DNA from: Candidatus Shapirobacteria bacterium
Lineage (GTDB): Bacteria > Patescibacteriota > Microgenomatia > UBA12405
Reading direction: 5' to 3'
Length of the DNA: 64,000 bases
NCBI GenBank assembly: GCA_041659325.1
Contig: JBAZYN010000004.1
Coordinates: 583 to 64,582 of the forward strand
Positions 2,558 to 26,748 of this stretch are shown in pieces (position 1 is the first letter of the stretch; each line of letters starts with the position of its first letter). Position numbers and translations under genes: made by a program. The notes under the pieces are model-generated. The model was given only the letters and a program-made list of their open reading frames with translations, did not search any database and was not told where the DNA came from.

Positions 2558-2558
2558 A

Positions 2559-2930: not shown

Positions 2931-2993
2931 ATTTTATATAATTTATATTATATATTAACAAATACTTGACATACCTGATATTATATCAGCGTT

Positions 2994-4175: not shown

Positions 4176-4187
4176 TAATCTAAACAT

Positions 4188-5177: not shown

Positions 5178-5178
5178 T

Positions 5179-5595
5179 CTATTCCAATGCGCCCAATCCG
5201 GCCTGAGCACAGGTTACATCCTTGTTAACATCAGCCGAGCCTCCCACGCCGATAGCTCCAACCACTTGGTCATTTTCCGAAACAGGGATGCCCCCCGCAA
5301 TCACCATCAATTCTCCATCAAAAGCACTTGTAGTCCCATAGTACGGTTGGCCCGGAGTCGCGTATTTGGCGATATCAGCCGTTGCCAAACGTAAAACAGC
5401 CGAAGTATAAGCTTTAGCCATTGCATATTTGGGGCTGATAATCAGCGCTCCGTCCATTTTTTGGGAAGCTACCATTACCCCATAGTTATCTACTACCGTC
5501 ACGGTAACTTTTTCTTTTAGTTCATCGGCTTTTTTAACTGCCGCATTAATTGCTTTTAAAGCTTTCTCAAGTGTTATCATAAAGTGCAAAAACAA
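5179..5595 (-). CDS. GlcG/HbpS-family (DUF336) heme-binding protein
   Basis: 138 aa. The GGIPV...VVGAIGVGG motif is characteristic of DUF336. It is convergent with the preceding gene at 1-bp spacing. Confidence 0.7.
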   Translation of the reverse strand: MFLHFMITLEKALKAINAAVKKADELKEKVTVTVVDNYGVMVASQKMDGALIISPKYAMAKAYTSAVLRLATADIAKYATPGQPYYGTTSAFDGELMVIAGGIPVSENDQVVGAIGVGGSADVNKDVTCAQAGLGALE

Positions 5596-5608
5596 ATAAT
5601 ATTATTAT

Positions 5609-7027: not shown

Positions 7028-7029
7028 TC

Positions 7030-7503
7030 ATGAGCCAAAAGTCTGGGTTTACTCTCCTCGAGGTCACTATAGTTCTCGGTATCCTGGCTCTCCTCTTTTC
7101 CATTACCTCACTTAATTTAAGCAACACTGCTCCCAAAAGTTCACTCGACAATGCCGTCCAACTTTTAATCGCCAACATAAAAGAGCAGCAGCTTTATGCC
7201 CTCACCGGCAAAACCGAAGACCAAACTGGTACTAACTTTGGTATTTATTTTGGCCCCCAAAAATATACTCTTTTTCAGGGAAACACCTACGACGCCAATG
7301 ACCTATCCAACTATGATGTCCATCTTGACGACATCGACACGTCTTCAACCGCTACCGGTTCGGTTATAATTTTTACCAGAAACACCGGTGAAATCCAAAA
7401 TTTTCAACCCACAGGCAACACTATCACTTTAACCCAAACCAACATTCAACAATCAAAGACAATCACACTAAATAAATATGGCATTATCGAATCAATTTTC
7501 TAA
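7030..7503 (+). CDS. Pseudopilin / minor type IV pilin (GspH/FimT-like)
   Basis: Prepilin leader MSQKSG followed by FTLLEVTIVLGILALL (class III signal with Glu+5). Confidence 0.8.
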   Translation: MSQKSGFTLLEVTIVLGILALLFSITSLNLSNTAPKSSLDNAVQLLIANIKEQQLYALTGKTEDQTGTNFGIYFGPQKYTLFQGNTYDANDLSNYDVHLDDIDTSSTATGSVIIFTRNTGEIQNFQPTGNTITLTQTNIQQSKTITLNKYGIIESIF

Positions 7504-9421: not shown

Positions 9422-9422
9422 A

Positions 9423-9917
9423 ATGAAAAAAATCTCACCTAGTGCCGGAACAACCCTAATCGAGCTAATCCTATACATGGGGCTTTTGTCTATATTTCTA
9501 TTAATGATTTTCAATTTATTTGCCACCATTCTTGCTTCTCAAACCCGTTCCGTCGCCGTATCGCTCGTTCAAACCAATGGTAATTTTATTTTAACCAAAT
9601 TAACTCACGACATAAATCAAGCCGATTCTATCATCACGCCTTTAACTGTCGGCACCTCGGATACTTCCATGGTTCTTCGTGTAGGCACTTCCGATTCCGA
9701 CTATAATGTCTCGGACGGCCGTCTTGTCCTTACCGATAGTACTGGTGCATCCAACCTCAACGATACCGATACTACGGTTTCTGATTTTGTTGTAAAAAGA
9801 TTGGGCAATTTCGGTGGAAGACAGGGTTTGCAAATATCGTTTACAATTACAAGTAATGTTATCGACAACACTAGCGTCAAAACTAAAAGTTTTCAAACAT
9901 TTGCTTCTCTAAGATGA
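9423..9917 (+). CDS. Pseudopilin / minor pilin (GspJ/PilW-like)
   Basis: MKKISPSAG followed by TTLIELILYMGLLSIFLL. The start is moved to the internal Met to avoid overlapping the upstream stop; the ORF track starts at 9402. Confidence 0.75.
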   Translation: MKKISPSAGTTLIELILYMGLLSIFLLMIFNLFATILASQTRSVAVSLVQTNGNFILTKLTHDINQADSIITPLTVGTSDTSMVLRVGTSDSDYNVSDGRLVLTDSTGASNLNDTDTTVSDFVVKRLGNFGGRQGLQISFTITSNVIDNTSVKTKSFQTFASLR

Positions 9918-10303
9918 ATCCAAAATACATTTTTTCCACCTTCCAAAACGGGCAAGCCCTCACCTCTCTTTTGATCATCATGTTTATCGGTCTGGCAATA
10001 GTTTCCGCCTCGGTGGGGATGATCAGCACTAATCTTGCATCGACCTCCGGGCTCCTTGTATCAAATGATGCCCTGGTGGTCGCTGAAAGCGGGGCCGAGG
10101 ATGCTCTTCTTAAAATCCTTCGCAATCCATCATACGCTGGGGGGACTTTGCCCCTTAGTATCGGCACTGCTACTGTCAGCATTTCTTCCACCTCTCCCTT
10201 CACCTTTGTCTCCACTGGTCAGGTGGGTCAATACCAACGCTCAATTCGGGTTATACTAAATAATACTGACGGTGTTACCACCGTCACTTCTTGGAAAGAA
10301 TAA
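9914..10303 (+). CDS. Pseudopilin-like protein (PilX-like, atypical leader lacking Glu+5)
   Basis: A short leader followed by the hydrophobic helix QALTSLLIIMFIGLAIV. Small size and operon context support the call. Confidence 0.55.
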   Translation: MNPKYIFSTFQNGQALTSLLIIMFIGLAIVSASVGMISTNLASTSGLLVSNDALVVAESGAEDALLKILRNPSYAGGTLPLSIGTATVSISSTSPFTFVSTGQVGQYQRSIRVILNNTDGVTTVTSWKE

Positions 10304-10307
10304 AACC

Positions 10308-11390
10308 ATGACCAAAAAATCTAGCCTTATTTTTTACCTTGATCGGCAAAAATTAATTATTGCCGGTACTCAGTTGGCCGTCCCCCTAACCCTGGATTTC
10401 CCTGCAAGCATCGTTTTGGATATCGACATTATCGACATCGAATCATTTGACTTACTTCTGGGAAATTTTCTGGAACAATCCCAAATTGCCGTCTCCGATG
10501 TCCTGCTGGTTGTTTCCCCAGAAGTTTATTACGAAAAAGACACCTCCCTTTCCCTCGACCCTACCGAGCGTCAAAATCAAATTGATCTTTTTTCGGAAAC
10601 GATACCATTCAAGCATCTTATTTTCAAAGATTATTCATTAGGTACGCCCCGTCTCATCGCCTTAAACAAAAATTTTTACGAACCGGCAATCAAATTAATC
10701 GAAAAAAAGGGCTTCAACATCTTTACCATTATTCCTTTTTTTGTCCTTGGTCATTTTAATTTAAAATTGGAAAATTACCAGCCCGCCGAAGTAAAAGAAA
10801 TTTTCAAAAAAATAAAGTTGCTTGATCCTCTAAGTATTATTTCTAGTCAGGATATCGACAAAATGGTTACCACCCAAATCCACAAGCCCAAGGAAGACTC
10901 TAAGCGGACATATATATTACTTGCTGTTTTTTGTTTCCTCTTTGTCTCCCTTCTGGCTTTTGTTCTTCTTGGTCCCCGGCTACTTAGGCCCGGTGCCAAA
11001 AAAACATACCCACCACCATCTATAATATCCACCCCCATCCCGACAAAGGTTTTAATCTCCCCCATCCCCACCGTTACTTTTCTTTCCGAAGAAACCTTAC
11101 GAATCAAAGTCGTCAATAGTTCCGGGGTGGCAAATCAGGCGGCTGCGGTAAAGCAAGCATTGACAGCCGCCGGTCTAAAGGAAATTACTATCGGCTCTTC
11201 GTCCAAAGTCACCGCCGCCAACAACCAAATTAGTTTTTCCCCAAATGTTTCTCCCGAATCCCGTCAAAAAATAACCGCCGCCGCTGAAAAAATTGCCGGG
11301 GTATTTACCGAGACCGAATCCACCGATCTTACCAATATTGATGTGCTTATCACCACTACTTTCAAGCCCGGTACTAAAGCTACCCCTTGA
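10308..11390 (+). CDS. Bitopic membrane protein with a C-terminal LytR_C-like domain (pilus-locus associated)
   Basis: Cytoplasmic N-domain, TM helix ILLAVFCFLFVSLLAFVLLG, a Pro-rich linker, then LRIKVVNSSGVANQAAAVKQALTAAGL...ITIGSS typical of LytR_C. The ORF track begins at a GTG at 10272. Confidence 0.5.
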   Translation: MTKKSSLIFYLDRQKLIIAGTQLAVPLTLDFPASIVLDIDIIDIESFDLLLGNFLEQSQIAVSDVLLVVSPEVYYEKDTSLSLDPTERQNQIDLFSETIPFKHLIFKDYSLGTPRLIALNKNFYEPAIKLIEKKGFNIFTIIPFFVLGHFNLKLENYQPAEVKEIFKKIKLLDPLSIISSQDIDKMVTTQIHKPKEDSKRTYILLAVFCFLFVSLLAFVLLGPRLLRPGAKKTYPPPSIISTPIPTKVLISPIPTVTFLSEETLRIKVVNSSGVANQAAAVKQALTAAGLKEITIGSSSKVTAANNQISFSPNVSPESRQKITAAAEKIAGVFTETESTDLTNIDVLITTTFKPGTKATP

Positions 11391-11423
11391 CAACAAATAC
11401 TGATTTAAACTAGTCTTAATCAA

Positions 11424-11906
11424 ATGAAACAAAAAATCTGCCAAAAAACCAACAAAAGAGGTTTCACCTTGATCGAGTTATTGGTCGTCATAGGTATCCT
11501 CGCTCTCTTGCTTGCCATTACTCTTATCGCTATCAACCCGGCCAAACAGTTCGCCCAAGCCAACGACACCAAGCGTAGTAGTGATGTCAATGCCATTTTA
11601 AATGCTCTCAACCAGTATGCCGCCGACAATCGGGGCCAGCTTCCCGCCGGTATCGGTGCCTCAGCCGTTTCCATTGGTTCTTCAGGGGTCAACCTCTGTG
11701 CCGATTTAGTCACCGAATATCTGGCCGCCCTCCCCACCGATCCGACTAGTGGTAATACCGCAGGAGAAGTCGGAGCTCCCGTAACTGTCTGTACTGCCGC
11801 CTATGATACCGGTTATGTAGTTTCCAGAAGCGCCGACAATAACCGTCTTACTGTTACTGCCACTAGCGAGGTCAACCCGACCATCCCGATTTCAGTCACT
11901 CGCTAA
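11424..11906 (+). CDS. pilA: Major type IV pilin PilA
   Basis: Canonical leader MKQKICQKTNKRG followed by FTLIELLVVIGILALLLAI. The protein is 160 aa. An intrinsic terminator follows. Confidence 0.9.
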   Translation: MKQKICQKTNKRGFTLIELLVVIGILALLLAITLIAINPAKQFAQANDTKRSSDVNAILNALNQYAADNRGQLPAGIGASAVSIGSSGVNLCADLVTEYLAALPTDPTSGNTAGEVGAPVTVCTAAYDTGYVVSRSADNNRLTVTATSEVNPTIPISVTR

Positions 11907-15319: not shown

Positions 15320-15910
15320 CTAGTTCAAATCATTGACTTGAGCGTTGACTACCACTGAACCTTCTGCAAGAGCATCAGCTCTACCGGTATAAAGGTAACC
15401 GTTTCCGCCTCGTACGGTTAATCGGTTATCACCTGAATCGGCATCTGCCTCAACCTCGCTATCCACCATTACCAGATTTACATCTATTTCACTGGCAGGT
15501 TGGTATCCTCCTCCGCATCGGTTTAGAGTATTGCATGGGCTAGTGCAGCCTTCGTCACAGCAGCCGTTTTCTTGTCGGCCGACGGTAACACCACCTCTGG
15601 CAGTTGCCCAAGCTTCACCGGTATCAATTATTCCGGTTACAACCACGGGTTCCTCTTCGGGTTCCTCATGACACCACGGCCCAAAACACGGCATTCTATT
15701 TGTTTCCCTGACTGGAGCGGGAGCGCCAATATTGACATTGTTATCGCCTGAATCGGCTTCTGCCTCCACCTCGCTTTCAATCAGGGTGACATTCGCATTG
15801 ATATCCGGGGTAACCCGGGTCATCCTGGATGGTCGTGTAAGAGCCGAAACTGGTACCGCCACGGCCAAAAGAACGGCCACTGCGGTTAAAGTTGCAATTG
15901 TTTTTTTCAT
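15320..15910 (-). CDS. Small secreted Cys-rich protein sharing the 'EVEA(E/D)ADSGDN' repeat with the upstream 917-aa protein
   Basis: Signal peptide MKKTIATLTAVAVLLAVAVPVSA. Two copies of the repeat flank a central segment with 8 Cys. Confidence 0.55.
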   Translation of the reverse strand: MKKTIATLTAVAVLLAVAVPVSALTRPSRMTRVTPDINANVTLIESEVEAEADSGDNNVNIGAPAPVRETNRMPCFGPWCHEEPEEEPVVVTGIIDTGEAWATARGGVTVGRQENGCCDEGCTSPCNTLNRCGGGYQPASEIDVNLVMVDSEVEADADSGDNRLTVRGGNGYLYTGRADALAEGSVVVNAQVNDLN

Positions 15911-16174
15911 ATGTTTTTTAAATTTTCACCCCCTTTTAAAATTTTTAAATAATAATACGTAAAGGAATAAAACAAAAACACCCCAAACACGCGCCACAAA
16001 CTCCAAAAACATCTCTTTTGTAAATACTATATATACTCATGGAAAAAACAAAAGCCACCTTATATTCTGAATTATCACCAAACCAAAATATCAAGTCAAT
16101 ACTATCAAAACAGGTCACCGAATTTAATCCCAAACGAACCGCTTTATTTTAAAAAGCAAAACAAAACCAAATTT

Positions 16175-16205
16175 TTTTAACTCCGAAAATCCGATTTTCC
16201 GGGCA
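16175..16205 (+). promoter_or_regulatory. Conserved intergenic motif copy A (TTTAACTCCG-AAAATCCGATTTT), near-palindromic
   Basis: It shares TTTAACTCCG...AAAAT.CGATTTT with 18904-18934. Both copies sit about 110-125 nt upstream of a start codon. Confidence 0.5.
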
Positions 16206-16282
16206 TTCGATATCTGCAAACAAGGAACATCAGTCGGGGCAAATAAAAATACCCAAATAATACGAAAAATTTATTTCCATTT

Positions 16283-16293
16283 TGTGGTAAAAT
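16283..16293 (+). promoter_or_regulatory. Extended -10 promoter element (TGtGGTAAAAT) for the 16328 gene
   Basis: TG-n-TAAAAT lies about 35 nt upstream of the start codon in a 417-bp AT-rich intergenic region. Confidence 0.4.
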
Positions 16294-16327
16294 AGAGAAG
16301 GTATAGAGTTTTACGGTTACATTCTTT

Positions 16328-17002
16328 TTGGCGCAGACGAATACAATGGATAACTTATTTGTATATTTTCTTCAAGCTCCTGCTACCGGAAATGATCCTG
16401 TCGTTTGTAAAGGGGCGGAGCAAATACTTAATAGTCTAGGCGATAGTATTAATTTCCAAAAAATTTCTCACCAATCTGAGGAACAAAGAGACCTAATTGA
16501 ACTCCACCAACCTCTGCGAATTTTCACTCTTGGATGTAGCCCCCAATTCGAGGTCACTCCGATTACTTATCTCAATCAAAAATACAATCAGGATTTTCTG
16601 GTTATTTGGTTTGACATCCGGGGATATCCTTTTTTCACCGATCCCGCTTTTTCTCAGCTAGATTTAAATCAGATAATTTTGGCCGGTGTAAACGACCTGG
16701 GTCAGTCCATCACCACCACTTCCTGCCACGAATTAAAAAATGGTCAGTTAATTTATAAAATCCTGAAAAAAGCTAAAAAAAATATTTATATTCATCTCAA
16801 CCTCAACGTTCTCGACCCTCAGGAATTAGGATCAGCTTCCCGCCCCGACGAAAACGGTATTCCCTTCGAAGCTTTAATCAGCCAAATTTTTCAGGTAAAA
16901 AAAGACTTCAACATTGTCGGGATAAGTATCGTCGAAGCCCCAACGATGACTCAATATCAACTGGACAAAGTCAACAAATTAGTACTAAAAACCTTCGAAT
17001 AG
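16328..17002 (+). CDS. Hypothetical protein, possibly a degenerate arginase/deacetylase-fold protein
   Basis: HLNLNVLDP resembles the SxDxDxxDP motif of the arginase family, but the metal-ligand Asp/His residues are not conserved. This is weak. Confidence 0.25.
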   Translation: MAQTNTMDNLFVYFLQAPATGNDPVVCKGAEQILNSLGDSINFQKISHQSEEQRDLIELHQPLRIFTLGCSPQFEVTPITYLNQKYNQDFLVIWFDIRGYPFFTDPAFSQLDLNQIILAGVNDLGQSITTTSCHELKNGQLIYKILKKAKKNIYIHLNLNVLDPQELGSASRPDENGIPFEALISQIFQVKKDFNIVGISIVEAPTMTQYQLDKVNKLVLKTFE

Positions 17003-17008
17003 TAAAAA

Positions 17009-17035
17009 AGTAAGCTATTATTAAACAAGCTTACT
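17009..17035 (+). promoter_or_regulatory. Perfect 8-bp inverted repeat hairpin (AGTAAGCT-N11-AGCTTACT) between two co-directional genes
   Basis: It has no U-tract and abuts the ATG at 17037, so it is an operator or processing/attenuation hairpin rather than a classical terminator. Confidence 0.35.
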
Positions 17036-17036
17036 T

Positions 17037-18359
17037 ATGAAAAAAGATATTCTGTCGCTTCTATCTGTTTTCAGCCTCGCAGTTTTAACCCTTTCTTTTT
17101 CCCCGCCGATTTCTTTTGCCCAAAGTTATACTTCCCGTCAAAGAATTGGTGTCGGTGTCCACTCCCACACTCCCGTAGACTATCTCAATTGGTATGATTT
17201 TCAGGCTTATAATCTTGGTTGGTATTTTACCTGGAAGGGGACCAGTGATTTACCCAACCCTGGCAATATCGATGGAGTTGAATTTATGCCCACGTATTAC
17301 AATGGCAAATGCCCTCAGGCTTCTCTCGATCTGGTAAAAAATAACCCCACTGCCTATCCTTTTGGGACCACTTTTTTGATCGGCAACGAGCTTGGTATGA
17401 CCGAAATTCCCGATATGGCTGTTTATGCCCAGGATTACCGCAATTGTTATCTTGCTCTCAAAAATTTAAATCGAAATTACAAAGTTGTTTTGGGCGCCCT
17501 AACTTCGTCAAGTCGGATATATATGCTCGAAACCATCCGTTCCGAGTATAAAAAAAATTACGGCACTGATTTGCCAACGGACGGTTATCGGGTCAATGTC
17601 TATTTTGAAACTTTGGCCAGTGCCGTCACCAAAATGCGTAATTTTATGAAAAGTGTCGGCGATCAGGATAAGGACTTAATCATCACCGAATCATGCCATC
17701 CCGACAAAACCGAATCCGAAAATGTTGCCTACCTAAAGGAAGCTCTAAACTACACCACCACTACCAAAGATACCTCTATCGGCAAACCGTCCGATAATTA
17801 CATGCTGATCCAGCGCTTTGCCTGGTTTCTTATGAATAGTGCCGTCAACGGTTATTCCAGTTGTTCGCTTTACGATATCAATTTACATGCGGCTGCCTAT
17901 CCTCCCCTTAAAACCAAAAAGACTCAAGTTGGTTTGGCTTTCTCCGATTGGATGGCCAAAAACATCCCCCCGACTGCCTCCAGTCCCACTCCCACCAAAA
18001 AACCCACCCTGATTCCCACCCTTCGCCCCACTTCAACTACAATCCCAACTATCCGTCCGACTTCCACCTCAACTTCCCGCCCCACCTCAACTTCAATCCC
18101 GACCATCCGTCCCACTCCCACCCTCAAACCGACCTCCCTCCCTTCTGCCTCTCCCACCGTCTCCGTCTGTTCCAAAAAAGCCACCGGTGATGCCAACTGT
18201 GATGGTTTGGTAAACATCTTTGATTTTGGAATTTGGAAAGTAGACTTTATTGACTATCGCAGCGGTACCAAAAAAAATATTTGGGACTCAGATTTTGATG
18301 TCGATTCAAAAGTTTCTATCTATGATTTTTCTATCTGGAAACTGGGCTACGGTAAATAA
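17037..18359 (+). CDS. Secreted clan GH-A-like (TIM-barrel) glycoside hydrolase with Pro/Thr linker and C-terminal dockerin-like module
   Basis: Signal peptide. IGNELG (acid/base-like) and IITES (nucleophile-like). A PT-rich linker. Dockerin repeats DANCDGLVNIFDF and DFDVDSKVSIYDF. Confidence 0.5.
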   Translation: MKKDILSLLSVFSLAVLTLSFSPPISFAQSYTSRQRIGVGVHSHTPVDYLNWYDFQAYNLGWYFTWKGTSDLPNPGNIDGVEFMPTYYNGKCPQASLDLVKNNPTAYPFGTTFLIGNELGMTEIPDMAVYAQDYRNCYLALKNLNRNYKVVLGALTSSSRIYMLETIRSEYKKNYGTDLPTDGYRVNVYFETLASAVTKMRNFMKSVGDQDKDLIITESCHPDKTESENVAYLKEALNYTTTTKDTSIGKPSDNYMLIQRFAWFLMNSAVNGYSSCSLYDINLHAAAYPPLKTKKTQVGLAFSDWMAKNIPPTASSPTPTKKPTLIPTLRPTSTTIPTIRPTSTSTSRPTSTSIPTIRPTPTLKPTSLPSASPTVSVCSKKATGDANCDGLVNIFDFGIWKVDFIDYRSGTKKNIWDSDFDVDSKVSIYDFSIWKLGYGK

Positions 18360-18373
18360 AGGCAAATAATAAA

Positions 18374-18772
18374 ATGAAAAATAATAAATATATTTTTGTC
18401 GTCATTGCTTTCATGCTTTTGCTAACGGTGCTGATTTTTGCTCGTTATAATTATCAATTCCAAATATCAAAAAAACCGGGTCACCCGATTATCCCTCCTC
18501 CCGCACTTTCAGAAAGATGCGGTCTGCAAGACTGTCACGGGCTAGATGTTACCTGCGGTCCGGATGTCCCCGAAGTCTGCGACCTGATGTACCAAATAGG
18601 GGACAATTGTCGGCAATACGCGCTCTGCGGTAAAGTCAGCGGCGAATGCCGGCTACAAGCATCACCCAAATTTGATGCCTGTAAATCCTGTGTTCAAACT
18701 TGTGAGCAAAATTTCCAAAACACTTCAGATCCGGCAAAAGTATTCGAGTGCGAAAGCACCTGTTTTGAGTAG
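18374..18772 (+). CDS. Small secreted cysteine-rich protein (14 Cys)
   Basis: N-terminal TM/signal, then a C-rich domain with CxxC and CxxxC spacing. Confidence 0.5.
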   Translation: MKNNKYIFVVIAFMLLLTVLIFARYNYQFQISKKPGHPIIPPPALSERCGLQDCHGLDVTCGPDVPEVCDLMYQIGDNCRQYALCGKVSGECRLQASPKFDACKSCVQTCEQNFQNTSDPAKVFECESTCFE

Positions 18773-18903
18773 CCAATTCGATTAATTAAAGTCAGCTTTT
18801 TTGTAGGTAAACGGCCAACTTCCTGTCGGATATTTTTTAATATTAAATACATAATTTAAATTATTCCTGAGATACCAAAGCATCAAACACCCAAAAGAAT
18901 TCT

Positions 18904-18934
18904 TTAACTCCGGGAAAATGCGATTTTAGGCACC
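18904..18934 (+). promoter_or_regulatory. Conserved intergenic motif copy B (TTTAACTCCGGG-AAAATGCGATTTT)
   Basis: Matches the 16175-16205 copy. It lies 108 nt upstream of the GT2 start. Confidence 0.5.
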
Positions 18935-19019
18935 CCTTTTCGCCATCGTTCAAGATTTTACATTATTTTGTTATTTATCTTATATAAATCTTACAAAACA
19001 TATTGTAGAATACCTTGCC

Positions 19020-19025
19020 TATAAT
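19020..19025 (+). promoter_or_regulatory. -10 box TATAAT for the GT2 gene (short leader without SD)
   Basis: TATAAT lies 16 nt upstream of the ATG at 19042. Confidence 0.35.
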
Positions 19026-19041
19026 ATTATTTCAAAGCCAC

Positions 19042-20076
19042 ATGGCCACAAGCCGCCCCAAAATATCCGTGTTAATCCCTTGCTACAACGAGGGAAAATC
19101 GATCCGCGCCTGTGTTCAGTCTTGCCTTGATCAAACCCGACCATTCGATCAAATTCTTGTCGTCAACGATGGCAGTACCGACAATTCCGCCTCGGCTTTG
19201 AAAAAATTTGGCTCAAAAATCCAAGTTATCACTTTCGACAAGCCCTCGGGAAACAAAAGTTTCTGTCAGGAAAAAGGGCTAAAATACATTACAGGCGATA
19301 TTTTTGTCGCCACCGATGGCGATACAATTCTTGATAAAAACTTTGTTGAACTGATAAAAAATGATTTTGAAAACGAAAATGTCGCTGCCGTTGCTGGCTA
19401 TGTCAGGAGTATCCGCTACAACTGGTTGACTATGTGCCGAGCCTTTGACTATGTAATTGGCCAAAACATCCACAAACTCGCCCAAAAATATTTAGGTTAT
19501 ATTTTTGTCATTCCCGGCGCCGCCTCGGCTTTTAGGACTGAAATTTTTAGGGAATATATCAATTTTGATCACGATACCATTACCGAAGATCTCGATTTTA
19601 CCTATAAACTCCACAAAAACAATCTAAAAATTGCTTACGATAAAAAAGCAATCGTCTACACTCAGGATCCGGATACTCTTCGCTCATATATCGGTCAAAT
19701 GCGCCGTTGGTATGGTGGGGGCTGGCAAAATCTGGTTAAGCATCTCAACCAGGATGTGACCGAAAATCCGCGTATAGTCCTCGAGCTTTCCTTGATTTAC
19801 ATTGAAGGTCTGGTTTTTTCGATTCTTATTTTCATAGTTCCTCTGATAAATATACTTCTGGCTATTAAATTTTTCTTTTATTTATCAATCGTGGTCTTTA
19901 TAGAATCAATTTATGCCTCTTTCGTCGACAGAAGATCCGATTTGCTATTAGTCGTCTTTGTTTATCCTTTCATGATGTACATAAATAGCTTTGTCTCTCT
20001 GGAACAATTTATAAAAGAAGTCGTCCTTAAGCGGCGCAATTTAGTTTGGTATCATCCGGCCAGGAGGGAAATATGA
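19042..20076 (+). CDS. Processive family-2 glycosyltransferase (cellulose/chitin/PNAG-synthase-like) with C-terminal TM helices
   Basis: VLIPCYNE, VNDGSTDNS, DGDT, and the QMRRW (QxxRW) motif. C-terminal hydrophobic helices. The start is taken at the internal ATG; the ORF-track TTG is at 19015. Confidence 0.8.
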   Translation: MATSRPKISVLIPCYNEGKSIRACVQSCLDQTRPFDQILVVNDGSTDNSASALKKFGSKIQVITFDKPSGNKSFCQEKGLKYITGDIFVATDGDTILDKNFVELIKNDFENENVAAVAGYVRSIRYNWLTMCRAFDYVIGQNIHKLAQKYLGYIFVIPGAASAFRTEIFREYINFDHDTITEDLDFTYKLHKNNLKIAYDKKAIVYTQDPDTLRSYIGQMRRWYGGGWQNLVKHLNQDVTENPRIVLELSLIYIEGLVFSILIFIVPLINILLAIKFFFYLSIVVFIESIYASFVDRRSDLLLVVFVYPFMMYINSFVSLEQFIKEVVLKRRNLVWYHPARREI

Positions 20077-20182
20077 TATTTTTACCCGGACTGTCGCTGA
20101 TTATTCATCTCACCATTATCGCGATTAATCTGATTTATATGGTAATAAATAGGCTTACCTTCAAATCAAGACCTACATCAAA

Positions 20183-20683
20183 ATGAAAAAAATATTATCA
20201 CTTCTAACTTTTTTTTCAATTACTTCGGCAGTAGTCTTAAGTGCCGGCATCATTCTCAACCTCTGCATCAAAAACGAACCTAACACTGTCCTTATCGCCC
20301 GTTTCATTGAGTCCCATTCCTCAACCGCTATTGCCCTCGTTAGAAACGATTCGGAGAACTCCACTGTTTTGGGTTCGTCCGATATTCAAAAACAGGCCGA
20401 TAATTCCGGTCTAAATGTCTCCTATGGCCTGCCCCAGAGTGTTTCAGTTTCGCCGGCCATTTGGGTTTTTCGCTCCGGTTGCTTCCCCAAATATCCTTCC
20501 GGAAAAGAAATCCGCTCTCTTGTTGACTATCTGGCCATCAACAATATCGACTATTCTTTTGAAAACAGATACAAACTCGCCCGTGAAAATGGTATAACTA
20601 ACTATCAGGGTACTCCATATCAAAACTTATTTTTGATAACCAGTTTGTCCGGCCAATACCCAGCATGTCTCACATCAAATTAA
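20183..20683 (+). CDS. Secreted hypothetical protein
   Basis: Signal peptide MKKILSLLTFFSITSAVVLSA. No recognised domain. Confidence 0.4.
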   Translation: MKKILSLLTFFSITSAVVLSAGIILNLCIKNEPNTVLIARFIESHSSTAIALVRNDSENSTVLGSSDIQKQADNSGLNVSYGLPQSVSVSPAIWVFRSGCFPKYPSGKEIRSLVDYLAINNIDYSFENRYKLARENGITNYQGTPYQNLFLITSLSGQYPACLTSN

Positions 20684-23600
20684 ATTTTATAAAAATTTGT
20701 TTCTTACTTATAACCGCTCTGTTGTTGCGGTTTGGATTTTCGGAGCATGCCCTCGCCCAAACAGGAAACCTTATCGCCAACCCTTCGGTGGAAACAGCCA
20801 GTTCAACCGGAACCACTCCCCAGGATTGGTTTACTGACAAATGGGGGACAAATACGGCCGTCTTTAGCTACCCAGCCATGGGTTATTTGTCTGATCGGGC
20901 CGTCAAAGTTCAGCTGACCTCAAGATCAAGCGGCGATGCCAAGTGGTATTTCAAGGAAATTCCCGCTACTGCCAATACTAATTACACTTTTTCCGACTAC
21001 TATCAGTCAAACGTGGCCAGTGTCATTGTTGTTGCCACCAAGTTAACCACCGGTAGTTACAACTATCTTACTGTTGCCAACCTTGTCGCCGCCCCTGCCT
21101 GGACCAAAGCAAACGTCACTTTTAAAACACCGGCCAACACTTCCACCGTTACTGTTTATCATCTTATAAACAAAGTTGGTTGGCTAATTACCGACGAATT
21201 TTCTCTTATTTCTACTGTCTCTGTCACTCCCACCCCCACCCCCACTTTAGCTCCGACTCTGACCCCAACTTCTACCCCCACTTCCACCCCCACGATCACT
21301 TCCACGCCGACTCCAATAGTCACAATTATTCCCACCAACACCCCCACCCCCACTGCCACGGCTGTCCCTACGTCTACCTCCACCCCCATTCCGACAGCCA
21401 CTATCGCTCCCACCAACACTCCCACCCCTACCCCCACTCCTGTTACCAATCCTGTTTTGAATCCTTCACTCGAGCAAAACCGACCGACAAACACGAATTT
21501 ACCTATTAATTGGACAAAAGAGAAATGGGGGTCATCCAATACTACCTTTACCTACCTAAAAACCTCCGGCCACACCGGTACCCGATCCATAAAAGTCCAA
21601 ACCACCAGATACACTTCCGGTGATGCCAAGTGGACTTTTGATCCGGTTGCGGTCACCCCGGGCGAGTCCTATTATTTTTCCGACTGGTATCAATCAAATA
21701 TTGTCACCCACCTTGTCGTCAGGTTTACCCTGGCAAACGGCTCATATAGCTATCTCGGCCTTCGGGATGCCCCAATTTCTGCCGCCTGGGCCGAATACAA
21801 AGAGGCTTTTACGGTACCTGTTGGGGTTAAAGCCCTTTCGGTACTTCATTTTATAGACAGGGTCGGCTGGCTGATAACCGACGATTATTCGCTTCAAAAA
21901 TTTACCTCCTCCGGCTATGGGTTACCCCTGGTTTCTTTAACTTTTGACGATGGTTGGGAAGACAACACCCTTACTGCCATGCCACTTTTAAAACAAAACC
22001 AAATTCCGGTAACTTATTATTTTGCCACCACTTTTCTAGTCAATAGCCCCGCAACTGGCGCCATAAATGTCTCCGGTCCATCAGCTGTAAACTATATCTA
22101 CTCCGAGGGTCACGAAATCGGCTCCCATTCTGTTACTCACCCTGATCTAACCACCCTCACCTCTGCCCAAATCATCGCTGAAATCACCGATTCCAAAAAT
22201 TATCTGGAAAACCTTGTGGGTGTTGGCAAGGTTACTAGCTTTGCCACCCCCTTTGGTGCCTACAATGACACTGTTATCACTTCTCTTAAATCATCACTCT
22301 ATCGTAGCCACCGCACCACCGATGAGGGACCAAATACTCCCGAAAATTACGACCGCTATCGTTTAAAGGTTCAAAATCTTCAATCCACCACTACTTTATC
22401 TGAATTCCAAAGCTGGGTTGACCAGGCTGTCGCCGACAAATCCTGGCTGATTCTGGTTTATCATCGAATTGCTTCCTCCGACCTTACTCAATACGACACC
22501 AGTCTGACCGACTTTAATAACCATCTTTCATATCTCAAACAATCCGGAGTCGTCTTTAAAACGGTCAGCCAGGCAATCGACAGTATTGAAAATGTTGTTC
22601 CCACCGTCACAACTACTATTGCTCCCACTTCAACCAATACTCCAATCCCCACATCAACTTCCATTCCCACCGCCACTCCCACCTCGATCATCACCCCCAC
22701 CCCAACCACCGACCCGGCCCCCACCTCTACTCCGCTTCCCGTCTATCCCACGCCGACATATTTCCCGCAGCCGACAGCCGGCCCCAATCTAATCCTCAAC
22801 AATTCCCTCGAAATAGGCGATACTCTTAACTCCTCCCTGCCGGATAAGTGGCAAAAAAATAACTGGGGGACAAATACTACCGTCTTTACCTATCCAGTCC
22901 CAGCTATTGATGGCTCTGCCGCCGCCAAGACCGAAATTACCTCATTCACCGATGGTGATGGCAAATGGTATTTTAGTGATGTTGCCGTTACTCCCAACAC
23001 CGTTTATCAGTTTTCCGATCAATACCAATCAAACATTTCCTCCCGTATTACCGTCCGCTATTTTCATGATGACGGCACCTATACTTACGTTGATATCGGT
23101 AATGTGGTCGCTTCCGCCGATTGGTCCACTTTTACCGGCGAAATCACTATTCCTACCGATGTCCATTCGATTACCGTCTTTCACCTGATTGAAAGTATCG
23201 GCTGGATTATCACCGACAATTATTCTCTTCGTCAAAAAGCCGCTCCAATCCCTTTCAGCCAGGGGATGGTTTCCTTAACTTTTGACGACGGTTGGCTCTC
23301 AGTTTATCAAAATGCTATTCCCGCCCTCAATGCCGCCGGTTTTAAAAGTACTCAATATATCACCACTAGCTTTTTGGGGACTACCGATTATATGAGCGTC
23401 GACAACGTTTTGGCCATGCAGATTTCTGGCCACGAAATCGCTAGTCACTCCCTCAGTCATCTCCAACTGCCCACCCTAAACGAGTCTCAAATCCGTCAAG
23501 AGGTTTCCGACTCCCGAGTGACTCTCCTTGGCATGGGCTTTTCTCTGGTCAAATCATTTGCTTATCCGTACGGTGAATATAATGATCTAATTCTTCGCAT

Positions 23601-23916
23601 CACCAAGGAATCCGGCTATACCACTGCCCGCACCGCCGTCCCCTTCGATTCGGGATACAACTATAAACATACCGACCCTTTCATGCTCAAAAACTTTTCC
23701 GTAGAAGTCGATACCACCCTCGACCAAGTCAAAACTTGGATAGATACCGCCAACCAAAACAAGACCTGGTCAATTCTGGTTTTCCATCAGGTGGATACCA
23801 GTGGCGGCCAGTATTCTATCAGCCCAACCTTGCTCCAAGGTATTGTCGATTATCTTACCCAAACCGGTACCAGTGTTGTTACCGTCAGCCAAGGCCTTGG
23901 CCAAATGCTCAATTGA
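20665..23916 (+). CDS. Secreted multidomain polysaccharide deacetylase: three CBM-like beta-sandwich modules plus two NodB (CE4) deacetylase domains, joined by Pro/Thr linkers
   Basis: Signal peptide. A repeated 'NPSxE...WxxxKWGTNTxVFTY...GDAKWYF...YQSN...HLI..VGWLITD' module (x3). LTFDDGW and HEI(G/A)SHS(V/L)(T/S)H motifs (x2). PT-rich linkers at about 21230-21450 and 22600-22760. Confidence 0.8.
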   Translation: MSHIKLNFIKICFLLITALLLRFGFSEHALAQTGNLIANPSVETASSTGTTPQDWFTDKWGTNTAVFSYPAMGYLSDRAVKVQLTSRSSGDAKWYFKEIPATANTNYTFSDYYQSNVASVIVVATKLTTGSYNYLTVANLVAAPAWTKANVTFKTPANTSTVTVYHLINKVGWLITDEFSLISTVSVTPTPTPTLAPTLTPTSTPTSTPTITSTPTPIVTIIPTNTPTPTATAVPTSTSTPIPTATIAPTNTPTPTPTPVTNPVLNPSLEQNRPTNTNLPINWTKEKWGSSNTTFTYLKTSGHTGTRSIKVQTTRYTSGDAKWTFDPVAVTPGESYYFSDWYQSNIVTHLVVRFTLANGSYSYLGLRDAPISAAWAEYKEAFTVPVGVKALSVLHFIDRVGWLITDDYSLQKFTSSGYGLPLVSLTFDDGWEDNTLTAMPLLKQNQIPVTYYFATTFLVNSPATGAINVSGPSAVNYIYSEGHEIGSHSVTHPDLTTLTSAQIIAEITDSKNYLENLVGVGKVTSFATPFGAYNDTVITSLKSSLYRSHRTTDEGPNTPENYDRYRLKVQNLQSTTTLSEFQSWVDQAVADKSWLILVYHRIASSDLTQYDTSLTDFNNHLSYLKQSGVVFKTVSQAIDSIENVVPTVTTTIAPTSTNTPIPTSTSIPTATPTSIITPTPTTDPAPTSTPLPVYPTPTYFPQPTAGPNLILNNSLEIGDTLNSSLPDKWQKNNWGTNTTVFTYPVPAIDGSAAAKTEITSFTDGDGKWYFSDVAVTPNTVYQFSDQYQSNISSRITVRYFHDDGTYTYVDIGNVVASADWSTFTGEITIPTDVHSITVFHLIESIGWIITDNYSLRQKAAPIPFSQGMVSLTFDDGWLSVYQNAIPALNAAGFKSTQYITTSFLGTTDYMSVDNVLAMQISGHEIASHSLSHLQLPTLNESQIRQEVSDSRVTLLGMGFSLVKSFAYPYGEYNDLILRITKESGYTTARTAVPFDSGYNYKHTDPFMLKNFSVEVDTTLDQVKTWIDTANQNKTWSILVFHQVDTSGGQYSISPTLLQGIVDYLTQTGTSVVTVSQGLGQMLN

Positions 23917-24979
23917 GGATACTTTTAAACGCCTCCAAAGAATTTGTGTCAGACCACACCCGCCAATCCTTTTCTTTGTTTTCATTAAACCAAATAAAGC
24001 CCTGTACTTTTGGGTGTTTATAAATTTCTTTCCCCAAACCTTCTTTAATCCAGTTTGCCTTTTCCTGTCCGTCGGCACACGCCATAGAAAAAATCATTAT
24101 TGGTTTATCCAGGGTTTCCAGGGTTTCAAGCCCGTCGTTAAACACTCTCGCAAAGCTGACCCAGGGGTTATCAAAATTAAACCCGTTGATACCCAAAATA
24201 TCAACCGCTTCGTTCCCCGGATAAAAGTCCATAATCCGGTTACCATCCACCTCGGGGCTTGATTCACCATTGACCGCCCAGCCAAATTTTACGTTATTTA
24301 TGCCCCCAAAAAATTTTTTTACGTATCTGTAGGCCGCAATATGTTTGGCCGCCGAATTGCCATTTTTTGTCCCCGACCACGGGTACCAATCTCCATTCAT
24401 TTCTTCAAACGGAATCAGGATAACTTCCCCTCCAAAGTTTTTGGTCTGTTTTGCAAAGTCAGCAATATATTTATCCCAGTCGCCTCTCAAAATTGCATCG
24501 TAATTATATTTCGGGTCTTCGGTTGTCTCCTTGTTGTAGTCCATTGCTTCCCAAAAAAGCACCAATGTTTTCCCGCGGCTTTTTGTAAAATTTCCCAAGT
24601 CAAGGGGCAGTTCATTTTCATTTCCCCAGTGGACAAATGTGGCCACAAAATCCATTTGTTTTCCTACTTTAGATTCAAAATTATTCACTTCTTCCACTTG
24701 CCACCCGGTATAGGCACCCCACTTTAGCTTACTTTTATAAATCGTCTTTGTCGGAGCCAATGTTGCTGTCGCTACCACTACAGTTGTGGGTAAAACCGTT
24801 GGGATTATGGTAGCTTCTGTTACCTCTTCCGTCGGTACCGGGGTTGGCAAAGGCAACTGATCGGTTTTTTTTGGGCTTTTCCTCATATAACCGATTATCA
24901 ATAGAAATATTACCAAACCAACGGCAAAAAATGCTGATAATATCTGCCTCTTTCTGCTCATGCAGTTATTATACCGCAT
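23909..24979 (-). CDS. Secreted GH26-like glycoside hydrolase (beta-mannanase-like family)
   Basis: N-terminal TM/signal, a PT linker, the catalytic-acid context IPFEEMNGDWYPW (GH26 'HE.N..W' signature) and a WGAY motif. Confidence 0.55.
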   Translation of the reverse strand: MRYNNCMSRKRQILSAFFAVGLVIFLLIIGYMRKSPKKTDQLPLPTPVPTEEVTEATIIPTVLPTTVVVATATLAPTKTIYKSKLKWGAYTGWQVEEVNNFESKVGKQMDFVATFVHWGNENELPLDLGNFTKSRGKTLVLFWEAMDYNKETTEDPKYNYDAILRGDWDKYIADFAKQTKNFGGEVILIPFEEMNGDWYPWSGTKNGNSAAKHIAAYRYVKKFFGGINNVKFGWAVNGESSPEVDGNRIMDFYPGNEAVDILGINGFNFDNPWVSFARVFNDGLETLETLDKPIMIFSMACADGQEKANWIKEGLGKEIYKHPKVQGFIWFNENKEKDWRVWSDTNSLEAFKSILN

Positions 24980-25048
24980 ATCATCTCAAAGACCCCCGTT
25001 TCCGTCGTCAAAAATATAAGCCATATATTATGTTACGATTAATTCATC

Positions 25049-26266
25049 GTGGAAAAAGCAAAAACAAGATTCCGCTCCTTTTGGCTACCGGTTTTCGGGG
25101 TATTTATGTTACTGGCAACTTTCTGGCTATCGCTGTCCAAAATTTATCAAAAACTTCAAAACCTTCAAAATACAAATACAGATCTGAATCAACAGATATT
25201 AGTTAACAATCAACAAATTGCCAAAAACAATGAAACCGCTAAAAATATTCAGGCGGAAAACGAAACGTTAAAAAATGAGGACCTTCGCCAAACAAACGGC
25301 AGTGTCAAAAAAGAAATTCAAGATTTGAAAACCAGTTTCAAAACCACCCTGACCTCGTACGAAGAAATTCTCGATCTACAAGATCGCGGATCAAAAATAA
25401 CTTCCCTCCAAAGTAAATTTTCCTCAGTCCTCAGCTTTTTGGCCAAAGATGACCTCGCTTCGGCTCAAAAAACAGCAACTGAGCTATCGGCAGAAATTAC
25501 CAAAGAAAAAACAAAATTAGCCTCTCTTGCCGCCGCTCCTATTCCGGCCAATGTTCCGGAAATTAACCAAGCTCCCGCTTCCGGGTATCGGAGGCAAAAA
25601 GTAACCATTGGTGACTCCTCGTATATGGTAAGCATTGTCTCGGCGGATCTCAATAGTACCAAAGTAATCGTCGACACTGCCTCAGATGGCACCTGCGCCA
25701 ACAACTGTCCTGTTTTGCCTCTGGCCACTTACGTCAGCCGCAGTGGCGCCTATGCCGGTATCAACGGCAGTTATTTTTGCCCCGAAACTTATCCTTCCTG
25801 CGCCGACAAGAAAAATTCATTTGACACCCTACTAATGAACAAAAATAAGGTCTATTTCAATTCCGACAACAATGTTTACAGCACCGTTCCGGTCGCCATA
25901 TTTTCCGGTAATTCCGGCAGGTTTATCGGCCAGTCTTCCGGATGGGGGCGAGATACCGGGGCCGATGCTGTGATTGCCAATCGGCCTCTTTTGGTTTTAG
26001 ATGGGAACATCATGTTTGGCGGTGGCAGCGACCAAAAAGAATCAGCCAAAGGTAATAGAAGTTTTCTGGGATCATCAGGCAATATTGGTTATATTGGGGT
26101 TGTCCATAATTCCACCGTCGCCGAATGTGCCAAAGTTTTACAGGCGATGGGCATAAAAAATGCCATCAATCTGGATTCCGGTGGCTCCACCGCCCTCTGG
26201 CATGGTGGTTACAAATTAGGCCCCGGCCGCAATCTTCCCAATGTCGTTCTGTTCGTGAAAAAGTAG
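25049..26266 (+). CDS. Membrane-anchored phosphodiester glycosidase (NAGPA/DUF2233) family protein with coiled-coil region
   Basis: N-terminal TM, a Q/N-rich coiled coil, AGINGSYF, RPLLVLDG, and the C-terminal NLDSGGSTAL (NAGPA 'NLDGGGSS') motif. Confidence 0.65.
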   Translation: MEKAKTRFRSFWLPVFGVFMLLATFWLSLSKIYQKLQNLQNTNTDLNQQILVNNQQIAKNNETAKNIQAENETLKNEDLRQTNGSVKKEIQDLKTSFKTTLTSYEEILDLQDRGSKITSLQSKFSSVLSFLAKDDLASAQKTATELSAEITKEKTKLASLAAAPIPANVPEINQAPASGYRRQKVTIGDSSYMVSIVSADLNSTKVIVDTASDGTCANNCPVLPLATYVSRSGAYAGINGSYFCPETYPSCADKKNSFDTLLMNKNKVYFNSDNNVYSTVPVAIFSGNSGRFIGQSSGWGRDTGADAVIANRPLLVLDGNIMFGGGSDQKESAKGNRSFLGSSGNIGYIGVVHNSTVAECAKVLQAMGIKNAINLDSGGSTALWHGGYKLGPGRNLPNVVLFVKK

Positions 26267-26289
26267 CAAATAAATTGTATATTTATCCT

Positions 26290-26748
26290 ATGGATGATTG
26301 TATTTTTTGTAAAATCGTAAAAGGTGAGTCACCATGTCACAAGATCTGGGAAGACGACAAGCACCTGGCTTTTCTGTCAATATTTCCAAACACTCCGGGC
26401 TTTAGTGTTGTCATTACCAAGGAGCACTATTCCAGTTACGCCTTTGACCTTCCCGACCAAGTTTTAACGGAACTAATGCTTTCAGTCAAAAAAGTTGCCA
26501 AGTTAATAGACTCCAAGTTAGCAGATGTCGGTCGGACCGGCATGATTTTCGAGGGCTTTGGTGTCGATCACATTCACGCCAAGCTTTTCCCCATGCACGG
26601 CACCGCCTCTCACTCCGAGTGGAAAAAATACGAATCACACGTCGACAAATATTTCGACCATTACGAAGGTTATATCTCCTCTCACAATTCCAAACGAGCC
26701 CCCGACTCCGACCTTGCGAAACTGGCAGAAATTATTAGAGATAAATAG
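26290..26748 (+). CDS. HIT-family (histidine triad) nucleotide hydrolase
   Basis: CIFCKIV N-terminus and the HIT motif GVDHIHAKLFP. The start is at the internal ATG; the ORF-track start at 26125 overlaps the upstream gene. Confidence 0.8.
   Translation: MDDCIFCKIVKGESPCHKIWEDDKHLAFLSIFPNTPGFSVVITKEHYSSYAFDLPDQVLTELMLSVKKVAKLIDSKLADVGRTGMIFEGFGVDHIHAKLFPMHGTASHSEWKKYESHVDKYFDHYEGYISSHNSKRAPDSDLAKLAEIIRDK

Follow-up and report, generated by a model that had tools for sequence, protein, structure and literature searches.

A conserved gene module of the candidate phyla radiation with the predicted capacity to make and modify a partly de-N-acetylated surface glycan

Contig JBAZYN010000004.1 of Candidatus Shapirobacteria bacterium (assembly GCA_041659325.1) was analyzed over a stretch of 64,000 nucleotides (the window), and positions 19042 to 24979 of this stretch code for a family-2 glycosyltransferase (GT2), a small membrane protein, a large secreted protein with two CE4 (NodB-homology) deacetylase domains and three modules resembling carbohydrate-binding modules (CBMs) of the CBM4/9 type, and a membrane-anchored glycoside hydrolase of family GH26 (Table 1). 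The GT2, the GH26, and a neighboring 440-aa protein are each 100% identical to a deposited Ca. Shapirobacteria protein. The stop codon of the small gene overlaps the start of the CBM-CE4 gene by 19 nt, and the GH26 gene converges on the CE4 gene such that their 3' ends overlap by 8 nt. The original prediction for this region, made from the sequence of the window, described an extracellular polysaccharide locus extending from 16328 to 26266, and all of the genes that it named are present where it placed them. However, comparative genomics shows that the conserved unit is narrower, spanning only 19042 to 24979, and that it includes the small gene, which had gone unmentioned. The borders of the unit were drawn from loci with GT2 orthologues in a species-level genome collection and in assemblies, whose six-frame open reading frames (ORFs) were searched with profiles of the window proteins.

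The set recurring among candidate phyla radiation (CPR) members consists of the GT2, the small gene, a secreted protein with one to five CBM-like modules that usually ends in a CE4 domain, and the GH26 gene, often in convergent orientation. The order GT2, small gene, CBM/CE4 gene, GH26 gene is seen in Shapiro-, Nomura-, Taylor-, Woese-, Zambryski-, Dojka-, and Saccharibacteria, with the small gene lying directly downstream of the GT2 gene in 11 loci and a CBM-CE4 orthologue behind the GT2 in most CPR loci; in Gracilibacteria, CBM-module proteins are encoded a few kilobase pairs from the GT2. The GT2 and neighboring ORFs of three gracilibacterial loci (L018, L019, and L021) are broken by TGA codons under genetic code 11 and intact under code 25, matching the known recoding in this lineage. 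In 19 of the 21 loci with enough flanking sequence, the GT2 lies near a CBM/CE4 protein, a GH26, or a replacement deacetylase. The last of these situations is found in two of the 19 (L015:5880-7259 and L017:11109-11936), in which a DUF2334/PF01522-type deacetylase takes the place of the CBM-CE4 gene directly after the GT2, a non-orthologous replacement of the same function. That a non-orthologous deacetylase fills the same slot speaks strongly for a functional tie between deacetylation and the product of the GT2, and the pairing of a synthase with an extracellular deacetylase, as first proposed, is thus retained across CPR lineages in spite of replacement in two loci. The conserved module contains no acetyltransferase, and an acetyl group that is to be removed must therefore arrive with the monomer. 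In L017 the replacement deacetylase is followed by an M23 peptidase. L015 and L017 are labeled 'Bdellovibrionales' and L011 and L016 'Gammaproteobacteria', but the GT2 is otherwise seen only in the CPR, and these labels look doubtful.

The GT2 matches the Pfam families PF13641 (2e-27), PF00535 (4e-25), and PF13632 (8e-20) and contains the motifs NDGSTD (at residue 42), DGD (the DxD motif, residues 92 to 94), TED (181 to 183), and QMRRW (219 to 223). This D, D, D, QxxRW set is invariant across 30 CPR orthologues, whose alignment (A1, 30 sequences) has 60 invariant columns. The protein is laid out as a cytosolic GT-A domain, interface helices, and three C-terminal hydrophobic helices (residues 243 to 269, 271 to 296, and 299 to 320), which follow the QMRRW helix and have a low hydrophobic moment by hydropathy analysis. 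When its AlphaFold2 model (pLDDT 86.5) is compared with the PDB using Foldseek, the Xenopus and Chlorella-virus hyaluronan synthases (HAS) rank at the top (TMq 0.72 to 0.73), followed by BcsA and yeast Chs1. Because of the motif set and the HAS/BcsA/Chs-like fold, we predict that the GT2 belongs to the membrane-embedded processive class, of which it would be a minimal version, in agreement with its initial description as a processive, QxxRW-type membrane synthase.

The original prediction likened this logic to that of poly-N-acetylglucosamine (PNAG) synthesis by PgaC/PgaB or of chitin-to-chitosan production. Membership in a pga, ica, or nod system is not sustained, since the scores to PgaC_IcaA and NodC, and those of the deacetylase to PgaB, IcaB, and NodB, are all far below the model cut-offs. 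The best NCBIfam model for the GT2 is PgaC_IcaA (TIGR03937), with 156.5 bits against a cut-off of 422.3 (1e-45, model positions 41 to 371 of 407), followed by MftF, an XrtG-associated GT2 model, NodC (70.7 bits against 550), and cellulose synthase (44 bits), and the protein shares 29% identity with Escherichia coli PgaC over the GT domain (E 3e-33). Conservation within the group is tight, with 54 to 76% identity among the best 120 database matches, which come from many CPR lineages. Among the matches listed, CPR GT2s share at least 46% identity and the next relatives at most 27%, a gap that may be partly an artifact of pattern-based retrieval.

The GT2 ORF can be extended upstream only to 19015 (9 residues), with a stop codon just beyond, and the protein therefore lacks an N-terminal transmembrane segment; the 353-aa version starting at TTG has no exact sequence match, and the deposited protein begins at the ATG at 19042. 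The glycan might be translocated by the three helices alone, by an oligomer, or together with the small neighboring protein. The C-terminal tail (residues 333 to 344) carries a conserved basic motif, NLxW(F/Y)xPxR, in which W336 and R341 are invariant and P339 is nearly so. In position and chemistry the tail resembles the gating-loop motifs of other processive synthases, although with three transmembrane helices the side of the membrane on which it lies is ambiguous. The small protein encoded next to the GT2 has a single predicted transmembrane helix and a conserved DUF3597-like C terminus; PF12200 matches three of six orthologues (best E 6.7e-7) and, at E 0.013, the window protein. The small protein, possibly an accessory subunit, was considered as an analogue of PgaD/IcaD and rejected as such by its topology (one transmembrane helix versus two) and by the lack of a sequence match.

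The secreted CBM-CE4 protein matches PF01522 in two domains (188.3 bits against a gathering threshold of 23.1), and a PDB search also returned CE4 structures. Its best NCBIfam match is HfsH (145 bits against a cut-off of 400), and scores to the equivalog models PgaB (42.8 against 321.9), IcaB (49.5 against 248), and NodB (83.8 against 240) are below their cut-offs. The Asp-His-His metal triad, the base Asp of motif 1, and the acid His of motif 5 are kept in both domains and in the orthologues, and with TFDDG, HSxxH, and LV(Y/F)H intact in each window domain, the residues on which a deacetylase assignment depends are conserved.

The CBM-like module is the most conserved part of the CBM-CE4 proteins and has invariant Trp, Tyr, Asn, Pro, Gly, and Asp positions in a profile (A3) built from 14 modules; the three in the window protein are ∼155 aa each. 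Pfam CBM_4_9 recognizes only one module (38.6 bits against 25.9 for the whole 1083-aa protein), and profile A3 has marginal matches in the PDB (E 0.005 to 0.1), namely, to CBM4-2 (E 0.005), CBM16, and the CBM4 of CenC. In several orthologues the CE4 domain is split, with motif 1 (TFDDG) ∼190 to 230 residues ahead of motif 2 (HxxxH) and a complete CBM-like module nested between them; in the window protein this spacing is the usual ∼55 to 60 residues. An arrangement in which the module is inserted within the CE4 domain would physically couple glycan binding to deacetylation. Very large surface proteins encoded beside the GT2 also contain the module, in as many as five copies; one of them, a 2141-aa protein at locus L002, combines it with PKD and Ig-like domains. 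This recurrence suggests that CBM-module surface proteins may use the polymer as a ligand or anchor.

The GH26 protein is related to the Clostridium thermocellum lichenase domain CtLic26A but is unusual in its active site. The deposited protein (P0121) starts at the Met at 24961 and has 350 aa, and its numbering is used here for residues. The match to PF02156 is weak (34.1 bits against a cut-off of 20.2), whereas that to CtLic26A is full length (E 1e-36), and the AlphaFold2 model (pLDDT 89) superposes on CtLic26A with a root mean square deviation of 2.1 Å, a TM-score of 0.89 to 0.90, and 31% identity. The usual GH26 mechanism is a double displacement carried out by two Glu residues (PMC10470212), and a Tyr hydrogen-bonds the nucleophile (PMC6381184). 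The acid/base Glu187 aligns with Glu109 of CtLic26A and is kept in all 32 CPR orthologues, but the nucleophile Glu222, on the CtLic26A strand KPIIIAEFAS, is replaced by Ser292 (KPIyIFSmAS), with Ser in 31 of the 32, and its partner Tyr185 is replaced by Phe261. The GH26 family assigned at the outset therefore stands, but the protein is no ordinary mannanase or glucanase, since it is Lic26A-like and lacks the nucleophile.

An exhaustive profile search of 1.84 billion cluster representatives (50%-identity clusters) was used to place this substitution, and the top 150 matches were classified. There are 104 representatives with Glu and Ser at the acid/base and nucleophile positions and 40 with the canonical pair of Glu residues, the latter being lower scoring and more distant. 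Phe replaces the Tyr partner in 99% of Ser-type proteins. Conservation of Arg105 is 95% among Glu-type proteins, and the Ser type has lost it; His108, which precedes the acid/base in the canonical active site, varies among Ser-type proteins. The remaining cleft residues are conserved in both groups alike. The changes are thus confined to the surroundings of the nucleophile, with the remainder under purifying selection. The loss is not an alignment artifact, nor does it resemble decay. The residue before the acid/base is not uniform among the 32 orthologues (Glu in 18, Ser in 11, Asp in 2, and Ala in 1). The Ser type constitutes a large, apparently undescribed branch of the family, and a limited literature search found nothing relevant on either a nucleophile-less GH26 clade or the CPR module, which is not proof of novelty; one Actinoplanes paper that names a GT2, a GH26, and a deacetylase deals with unrelated Wzx/Wzy clusters. 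A related Shapirobacteria contig (L001/L004:14834-19944) has three further GH26 paralogues beside the orthologue, one of which (15849-16817, minus strand) has the canonical His-Glu and the nucleophile Glu, as well as a second GT2 of 649 aa (16813-18762) with cellulose-synthase-like and faint LysM-like matches.

Retaining hydrolases that act on 2-acetamido sugars by substrate assistance (GH18, GH20, GH56, GH84, and GH85) keep the acid/base and have no enzymic nucleophile. Because the Ser-type GH26 proteins likewise have a retaining scaffold with the acid/base kept and no enzymic nucleophile, we propose as a hypothesis that they cleave after an N-acetylhexosamine (HexNAc) by substrate-assisted catalysis.

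With moderate confidence, we interpret the unit at 19042 to 24979 as a minimal, synthase-dependent system, shared across the CPR, for a surface glycan that contains HexNAc and is partly de-N-acetylated, with lower confidence in the identity of the sugar and in the chemistry of the hydrolase. Three independent lines suggest an N-acetylated amino-sugar polymer: the GT2 is closest to GlcNAc polymerases, a deacetylase is its most constant partner in a module without an acetyltransferase, and the part missing from the hydrolase is precisely the one that an enzyme specific for HexNAc can spare. In such a system the GT2, at the cytoplasmic membrane face, would processively polymerize a UDP-N-acetylhexosamine (UDP-GlcNAc being the likeliest, perhaps with a second sugar), and the chain would pass outward through or along the three C-terminal helices, probably of an oligomer or with the participation of the DUF3597-like protein. 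Outside the cell, the CBM4/9-like modules would hold the two-domain CE4 enzyme on the nascent glycan, and the CE4 domains would strip part of the N-acetyl groups to yield a cationic polymer. The membrane-tethered GH26 would then cut or trim the chain, using the 2-acetamido group of the substrate as the nucleophile and so requiring an N-acetylated sugar in subsite -1, and the polymer could also serve the adjoining CBM-module surface proteins as an anchor or ligand.

Lichenases cleave the β-1,4 bond that follows a 3-substituted sugar. The hydrolase is lichenase shaped and the GT2 resembles hyaluronan synthases, and for these reasons one might speculate that the backbone is of mixed linkage. The most far-reaching form of the proposal, which we think rather unlikely to hold in full, is that the CPR share an unrecognized, partly de-N-acetylated HexNAc glycan, perhaps of mixed β-1,3/1,4 linkage, made by the smallest known processive synthase-translocase (344 aa, lacking an N-terminal transmembrane segment and with a DUF3597-like partner), remodeled by the first substrate-assisted GH26 lineage, and used as a docking matrix for CBM-module surface proteins mediating epibiosis.

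Several observations weigh against the proposed glycan system. The GT2 falls far below the cut-offs of all curated family models and is without the N-terminal transmembrane helices of PgaC, HAS, and NodC, and a channel may need more helices than its three; complete polymer channels usually have at least four to eight transmembrane helices, some of them N-terminal. Neither a PgaD/IcaD-like partner nor a cyclic di-GMP (c-di-GMP) receptor nor an export component was recognized in the module. In the deacetylase, the motif-3 Arg (RxPY) is Ala in both domains (ATPFG and AYPYG) and in the orthologues. The GH26 gene, being convergently transcribed, is not part of one operon with the others, and no conserved Asp or other residue that could polarize the acetamido group was identified among the 32 GH26 orthologues. 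A GH26 without its nucleophile could instead be a binding protein devoid of catalysis, or could work by another mechanism. Two loci, L012 and L016, have the GT2 with neither a deacetylase nor a GH26 nearby. Lastly, the closest characterized GH26 relative is a β-1,3-1,4-glucanase and the CBM-like modules resemble β-glucan and xylan binders, and both would also fit a glucan.

This last point leads to an alternative, to which we assign a low probability, in which the polymer is a neutral β-glucan, such as a mixed-linkage β-1,3/1,4-glucan, or a related hexose polymer, the Ser-type GH26 is a non-catalytic chaperone or binder or works by some other mechanism, and the CE4 enzyme acts elsewhere, for example, on the cell's own peptidoglycan. 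Retention of almost the whole CtLic26A scaffold outside the nucleophile region, the fit of CBM4/9/16-like modules to glucan, and partial matches of the GT2 to the cellulose synthase model CelA are all consistent with it. Yet the GT2 scores 156 bits on PgaC/IcaA and 44 on cellulose synthase models, and an acid/base Glu present in 32 of 32 orthologues argues for catalysis. Deacetylase adjacency is moreover the most conserved feature of the module and survives gene replacement, and the fusion of the CBM-like module to CE4, or its insertion within it, in many orthologues ties deacetylation to the bound glycan. The same resemblance of the modules to plant-glycan binders, and of the GH26 to a cellulosomal lichenase, would also fit a degradative role, in which the secreted CBM-CE4 and GH26 proteins, with the nearby 440-aa hydrolase and the phosphodiester glycosidase (NAGPA), break down or scavenge host or environmental chitin, acetylated xylan or mannan, β-glucan, or peptidoglycan, and the GT2 is an unrelated neighbor. 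In papers on CPR and on gut and rumen metagenomes, the GH26 and CE4 genes of CPR are listed among the carbohydrate-active enzymes (CAZymes) for lignocellulose breakdown or biomass recycling, and there is a dockerin-like tail encoded nearby. We nevertheless consider degradation improbable, as even very divergent CPR lineages retain the adjacency to the GT2, including where another type of deacetylase takes the slot, the nucleophile needed by all characterized GH26 depolymerases is missing from the GH26 clade, and no sugar transporter or catabolic genes accompany the module.

The size of the GT2 and its few transmembrane helices bear on a different possibility, namely, that it makes a HexNAc glycolipid or lipid-linked oligosaccharide that the extracellular CE4 enzyme converts to a cationic aminoglycolipid, in the manner of HexS and HexD in Clostridioides difficile. 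GT2 glycolipid synthases of ∼340 aa are found in Mycoplasma (MG517 and MPN483), and CPR membranes are poorly understood. HexSDF illustrates that a glycosyltransferase and a polysaccharide deacetylase can together yield an aminoglycolipid in a monoderm (PMC10128005), but HexS is of the monogalactosyldiacylglycerol (MGDG)-synthase type and not a GT2, and the QxxRW motif with a HAS/BcsA/Chs-like fold is a mark of enzymes that extend glycan acceptors. An endo-type (β/α)8 hydrolase and up to five tandem binding-like modules are also ill suited to a head group of one or two sugars, and the module has no flippase; we therefore think this explanation quite unlikely.

The module bears on both CPR biology and enzymology. 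The composition of the CPR envelope and the attachment of epibionts to their hosts are largely unknown, and the module, conserved from Microgenomates to Saccharibacteria and Gracilibacteria, is a candidate for a lineage-wide surface polymer. It also urges caution with metagenome CAZyme surveys that count the GH26 and CE4 genes of CPR toward plant-biomass degradation. The GH26 clade that lacks both the nucleophile and its Tyr partner comprises at least 104 clusters at 50% identity and, if catalytic, would represent a new mechanism and probably a new substrate class in a well-studied family. The GT2, for its part, is a very small synthase with which to ask how few transmembrane helices suffice for polymer translocation.

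The genes flanking the unit were included in the original prediction as parts of the system but, from 16328 to 18772 and at the NAGPA gene, they recur in none of the other loci. NAGPA itself has no counterpart in the 21 CPR loci first screened (L002 and L004 to L023), and neither do the genes for the 440-aa protein, a Cys-rich 132-aa protein, and an arginase-like 224-aa ORF in the other CPR loci screened; because of these absences the unit is taken to be 19042 to 24979. The Cys-rich protein has no Pfam or NCBIfam match and the arginase-like ORF scores 21.8 bits against a threshold of 22, and both were rejected as parts of the system. The NAGPA gene is divergent from the GH26 gene, and its annotation is upheld by a PF09992 match above threshold. 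For the 440-aa protein, first described as a GH-A/dockerin protein, the GH-A part holds only by way of homologues (23 to 34% identity) that carry PF11790 Glyco_hydro_cc, and the dockerin part falls short, with Dockerin_1 at 18.8 bits against a threshold of 22.9. Its catalytic part has no Pfam or PDB match, the PDB search having matched the Pro/Thr-rich (PT) linker alone, and a profile comparison of this region with GH26 gave a probability of 0.2, that is, no relationship.

Farther out, a type IV pilus-like cluster lies directly upstream of surface-protein genes, with the genes for a DUF11 protein and a secreted 196-aa protein situated between it and the glycan locus. Housekeeping genes are found downstream, coding for HIT, flavodoxin-like, YdjM, and HMGL-like proteins, MetK, and MetRS. 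The HIT domain begins only at residue 67 of its ORF or earlier (a second Pfam match starts at 59), and the true start is therefore probably an internal Met. A giant 3140-aa ORF probably codes for a surface or adhesin-type protein, judging from its domains. Searching the window with Rfam identified only a tRNA-Trp, with no riboswitch or leader near the locus, and in a promoter and terminator scan of 16000 to 26500 the terminator-like sites were at the level expected from shuffled sequence and the excess of promoter-like sites gave no usable positions. GC skew is strongly negative throughout the window and most extreme (-0.27 to -0.31) at 20001 to 24000, where the CE4 protein and GH26 have their Pro/Thr-rich linkers, encoded by CCN/ACN codons.

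Table 1. Features of the locus and its surroundings in the window, and split-CE4 orthologues at other loci
Feature	Position	Strand	Description or basis
Type IV pilus / type II secretion-like cluster	72-11906	+	T2SSE ATPase (PilB-like), T2SSF platform protein (PilC-like), two N-methyl pilin-like genes, GAF-histidine kinase, LytR_C protein
DUF11 protein, 917 aa	12507-15260	-	Unannotated; surface-protein candidate
Secreted 196-aa protein	15320-15910	-	Internal duplication, two copies of a ...SEVEA(E/D)ADSGDN... segment; surface-protein candidate
Secreted 440-aa protein	17037-18359	+	Distant Glyco_hydro_cc (clan GH-A)-like domain, PT linker, dockerin-like C terminus
GT2, 344 aa	19042-20076	+	Predicted processive synthase; Pfam, NCBIfam, motifs, AlphaFold2 model
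Small protein, 166 aa	20183-20683	+	N-terminal membrane anchor (one transmembrane helix), conserved C-terminal ∼50-aa DUF3597-like ectodomain
Secreted CBM-CE4 protein, 1083 aa	20665-23916	+	Signal peptide, CBM-like a, PT linker, CBM-like b, CE4a, PT linker, CBM-like c, CE4b
CBM4/9-like module a (aa 31-185)	20755-21219	+	Profile A3
CBM4/9-like module b (aa 256-415)	21430-21909	+	Profile search
CE4 (NodB-homology) domain a	21910-22599	+	TFDDG 426, HSVTH 488, ATPFG 527, LVYH 597
CBM4/9-like module c (aa 701-858)	22765-23238	+	Carries the Pfam CBM_4_9 match
CE4 domain b	23239-23913	+	TFDDG 872, HSLSH 928, AYPYG 966, LVFH 1038
Membrane-anchored GH26, Lic26A type	23909-24979	-	N-terminal transmembrane helix, PT linker, (β/α)8 domain
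NAGPA (phosphodiester glycosidase) protein	25049-26266	+	Membrane anchor, coiled-coil region, PF09992 (48 bits, cut-off 25)
HIT-domain ORF	26125-26748	+	Overlaps the 3' end of the NAGPA gene by ∼140 nt
Giant 3140-aa ORF	42512-51934	+	Gly-rich, DUF2341, right-handed β-helix, NosD-like regions
Split-CE4 orthologues	L006:13081-16764, L007:8305-13026, L013:12114-13877, L020:11505-13976		CBM-like module nested between CE4 motifs 1 and 2
Split-CE4 orthologue, smaller insert	L002:17470-18852		

Among known systems, two Gram-positive-type envelope loci, Bacillus subtilis ydaJKLMN (PMC13274460) and C. difficile hexSDF (PMC10128005), also combine a glycosyltransferase with an extracytoplasmic modifying enzyme, a likeness of description rather than of established orthology. 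The ydaJKLMN operon differs in having a c-di-GMP receptor, and its polymer is uncharacterized, and in hexSDF the product of HexS is a lipid head group. The pairing of a QxxRW GT2 with a NodB-fold deacetylase for GlcNAc chains is shared with NodC/NodB and with chitin synthase and chitin deacetylase; however, NodB is cytoplasmic, whereas the CPR CE4 protein has a signal peptide and CBM-like modules, and acyltransferase and Nod export genes are absent.

Class I hyaluronan synthases (Chlorella virus HAS and Xenopus HAS1) are the best structural matches to the GT2 and are likewise single-protein synthase-translocases with few transmembrane helices. With a hyaluronan-type repeat (X-β1,3-GlcNAc-β1,4), subsite -1 of a lichenase-shaped hydrolase lacking the nucleophile would be occupied by a 3-substituted GlcNAc. 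The sequence similarity is nevertheless marginal (E 1.6e-5 to 8e-3), the N-terminal transmembrane pair is absent, and there is no sign of dual sugar specificity or of a UDP-GlcA supply; to our knowledge, hyaluronan is not deacetylated by any CE4 enzyme. CtLic26A (the lichenase domain of C. thermocellum CelH; PDB 2BV9 and 2CIP) shares with the CPR GH26 its acid/base Glu109 and most of the aromatic and polar cleft residues, but in the CPR protein Glu222 is Ser, Tyr185 is Phe, and Arg105 and His108 are not conserved. The CPR protein is also membrane anchored, and its genomic partners are a synthase and a deacetylase, not a cellulosome.

The PNAG systems (pgaABCD of E. coli and Bordetella and icaADBC of staphylococci) resemble the CPR module in having a QxxRW GT2, to which PgaC/IcaA is closest, an extracytoplasmic CE4 enzyme, an extracellular (β/α)8 hydrolase, and a small membrane protein encoded beside the synthase. 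PgaB pairs its CE4 domain with a GH153 (β/α)8 hydrolase that cuts the partly deacetylated polymer and for which one catalytic carboxylate has been identified (PMC5933820), whereas the CPR hydrolase is a separate, membrane-anchored GH26 and the CE4 protein carries CBM4/9-like modules. The GT2 lacks the two transmembrane helices that precede the GT domain in PgaC, the small partner has one transmembrane helix and a DUF3597-like ectodomain in place of the two transmembrane helices of PgaD/IcaD, and there is neither a PgaA porin or IcaC in the window nor c-di-GMP control. By sequence comparison, the CPR system thus appears to be PNAG-like in its logic while being built from parts that are not orthologous to those of pga, ica, or nod.

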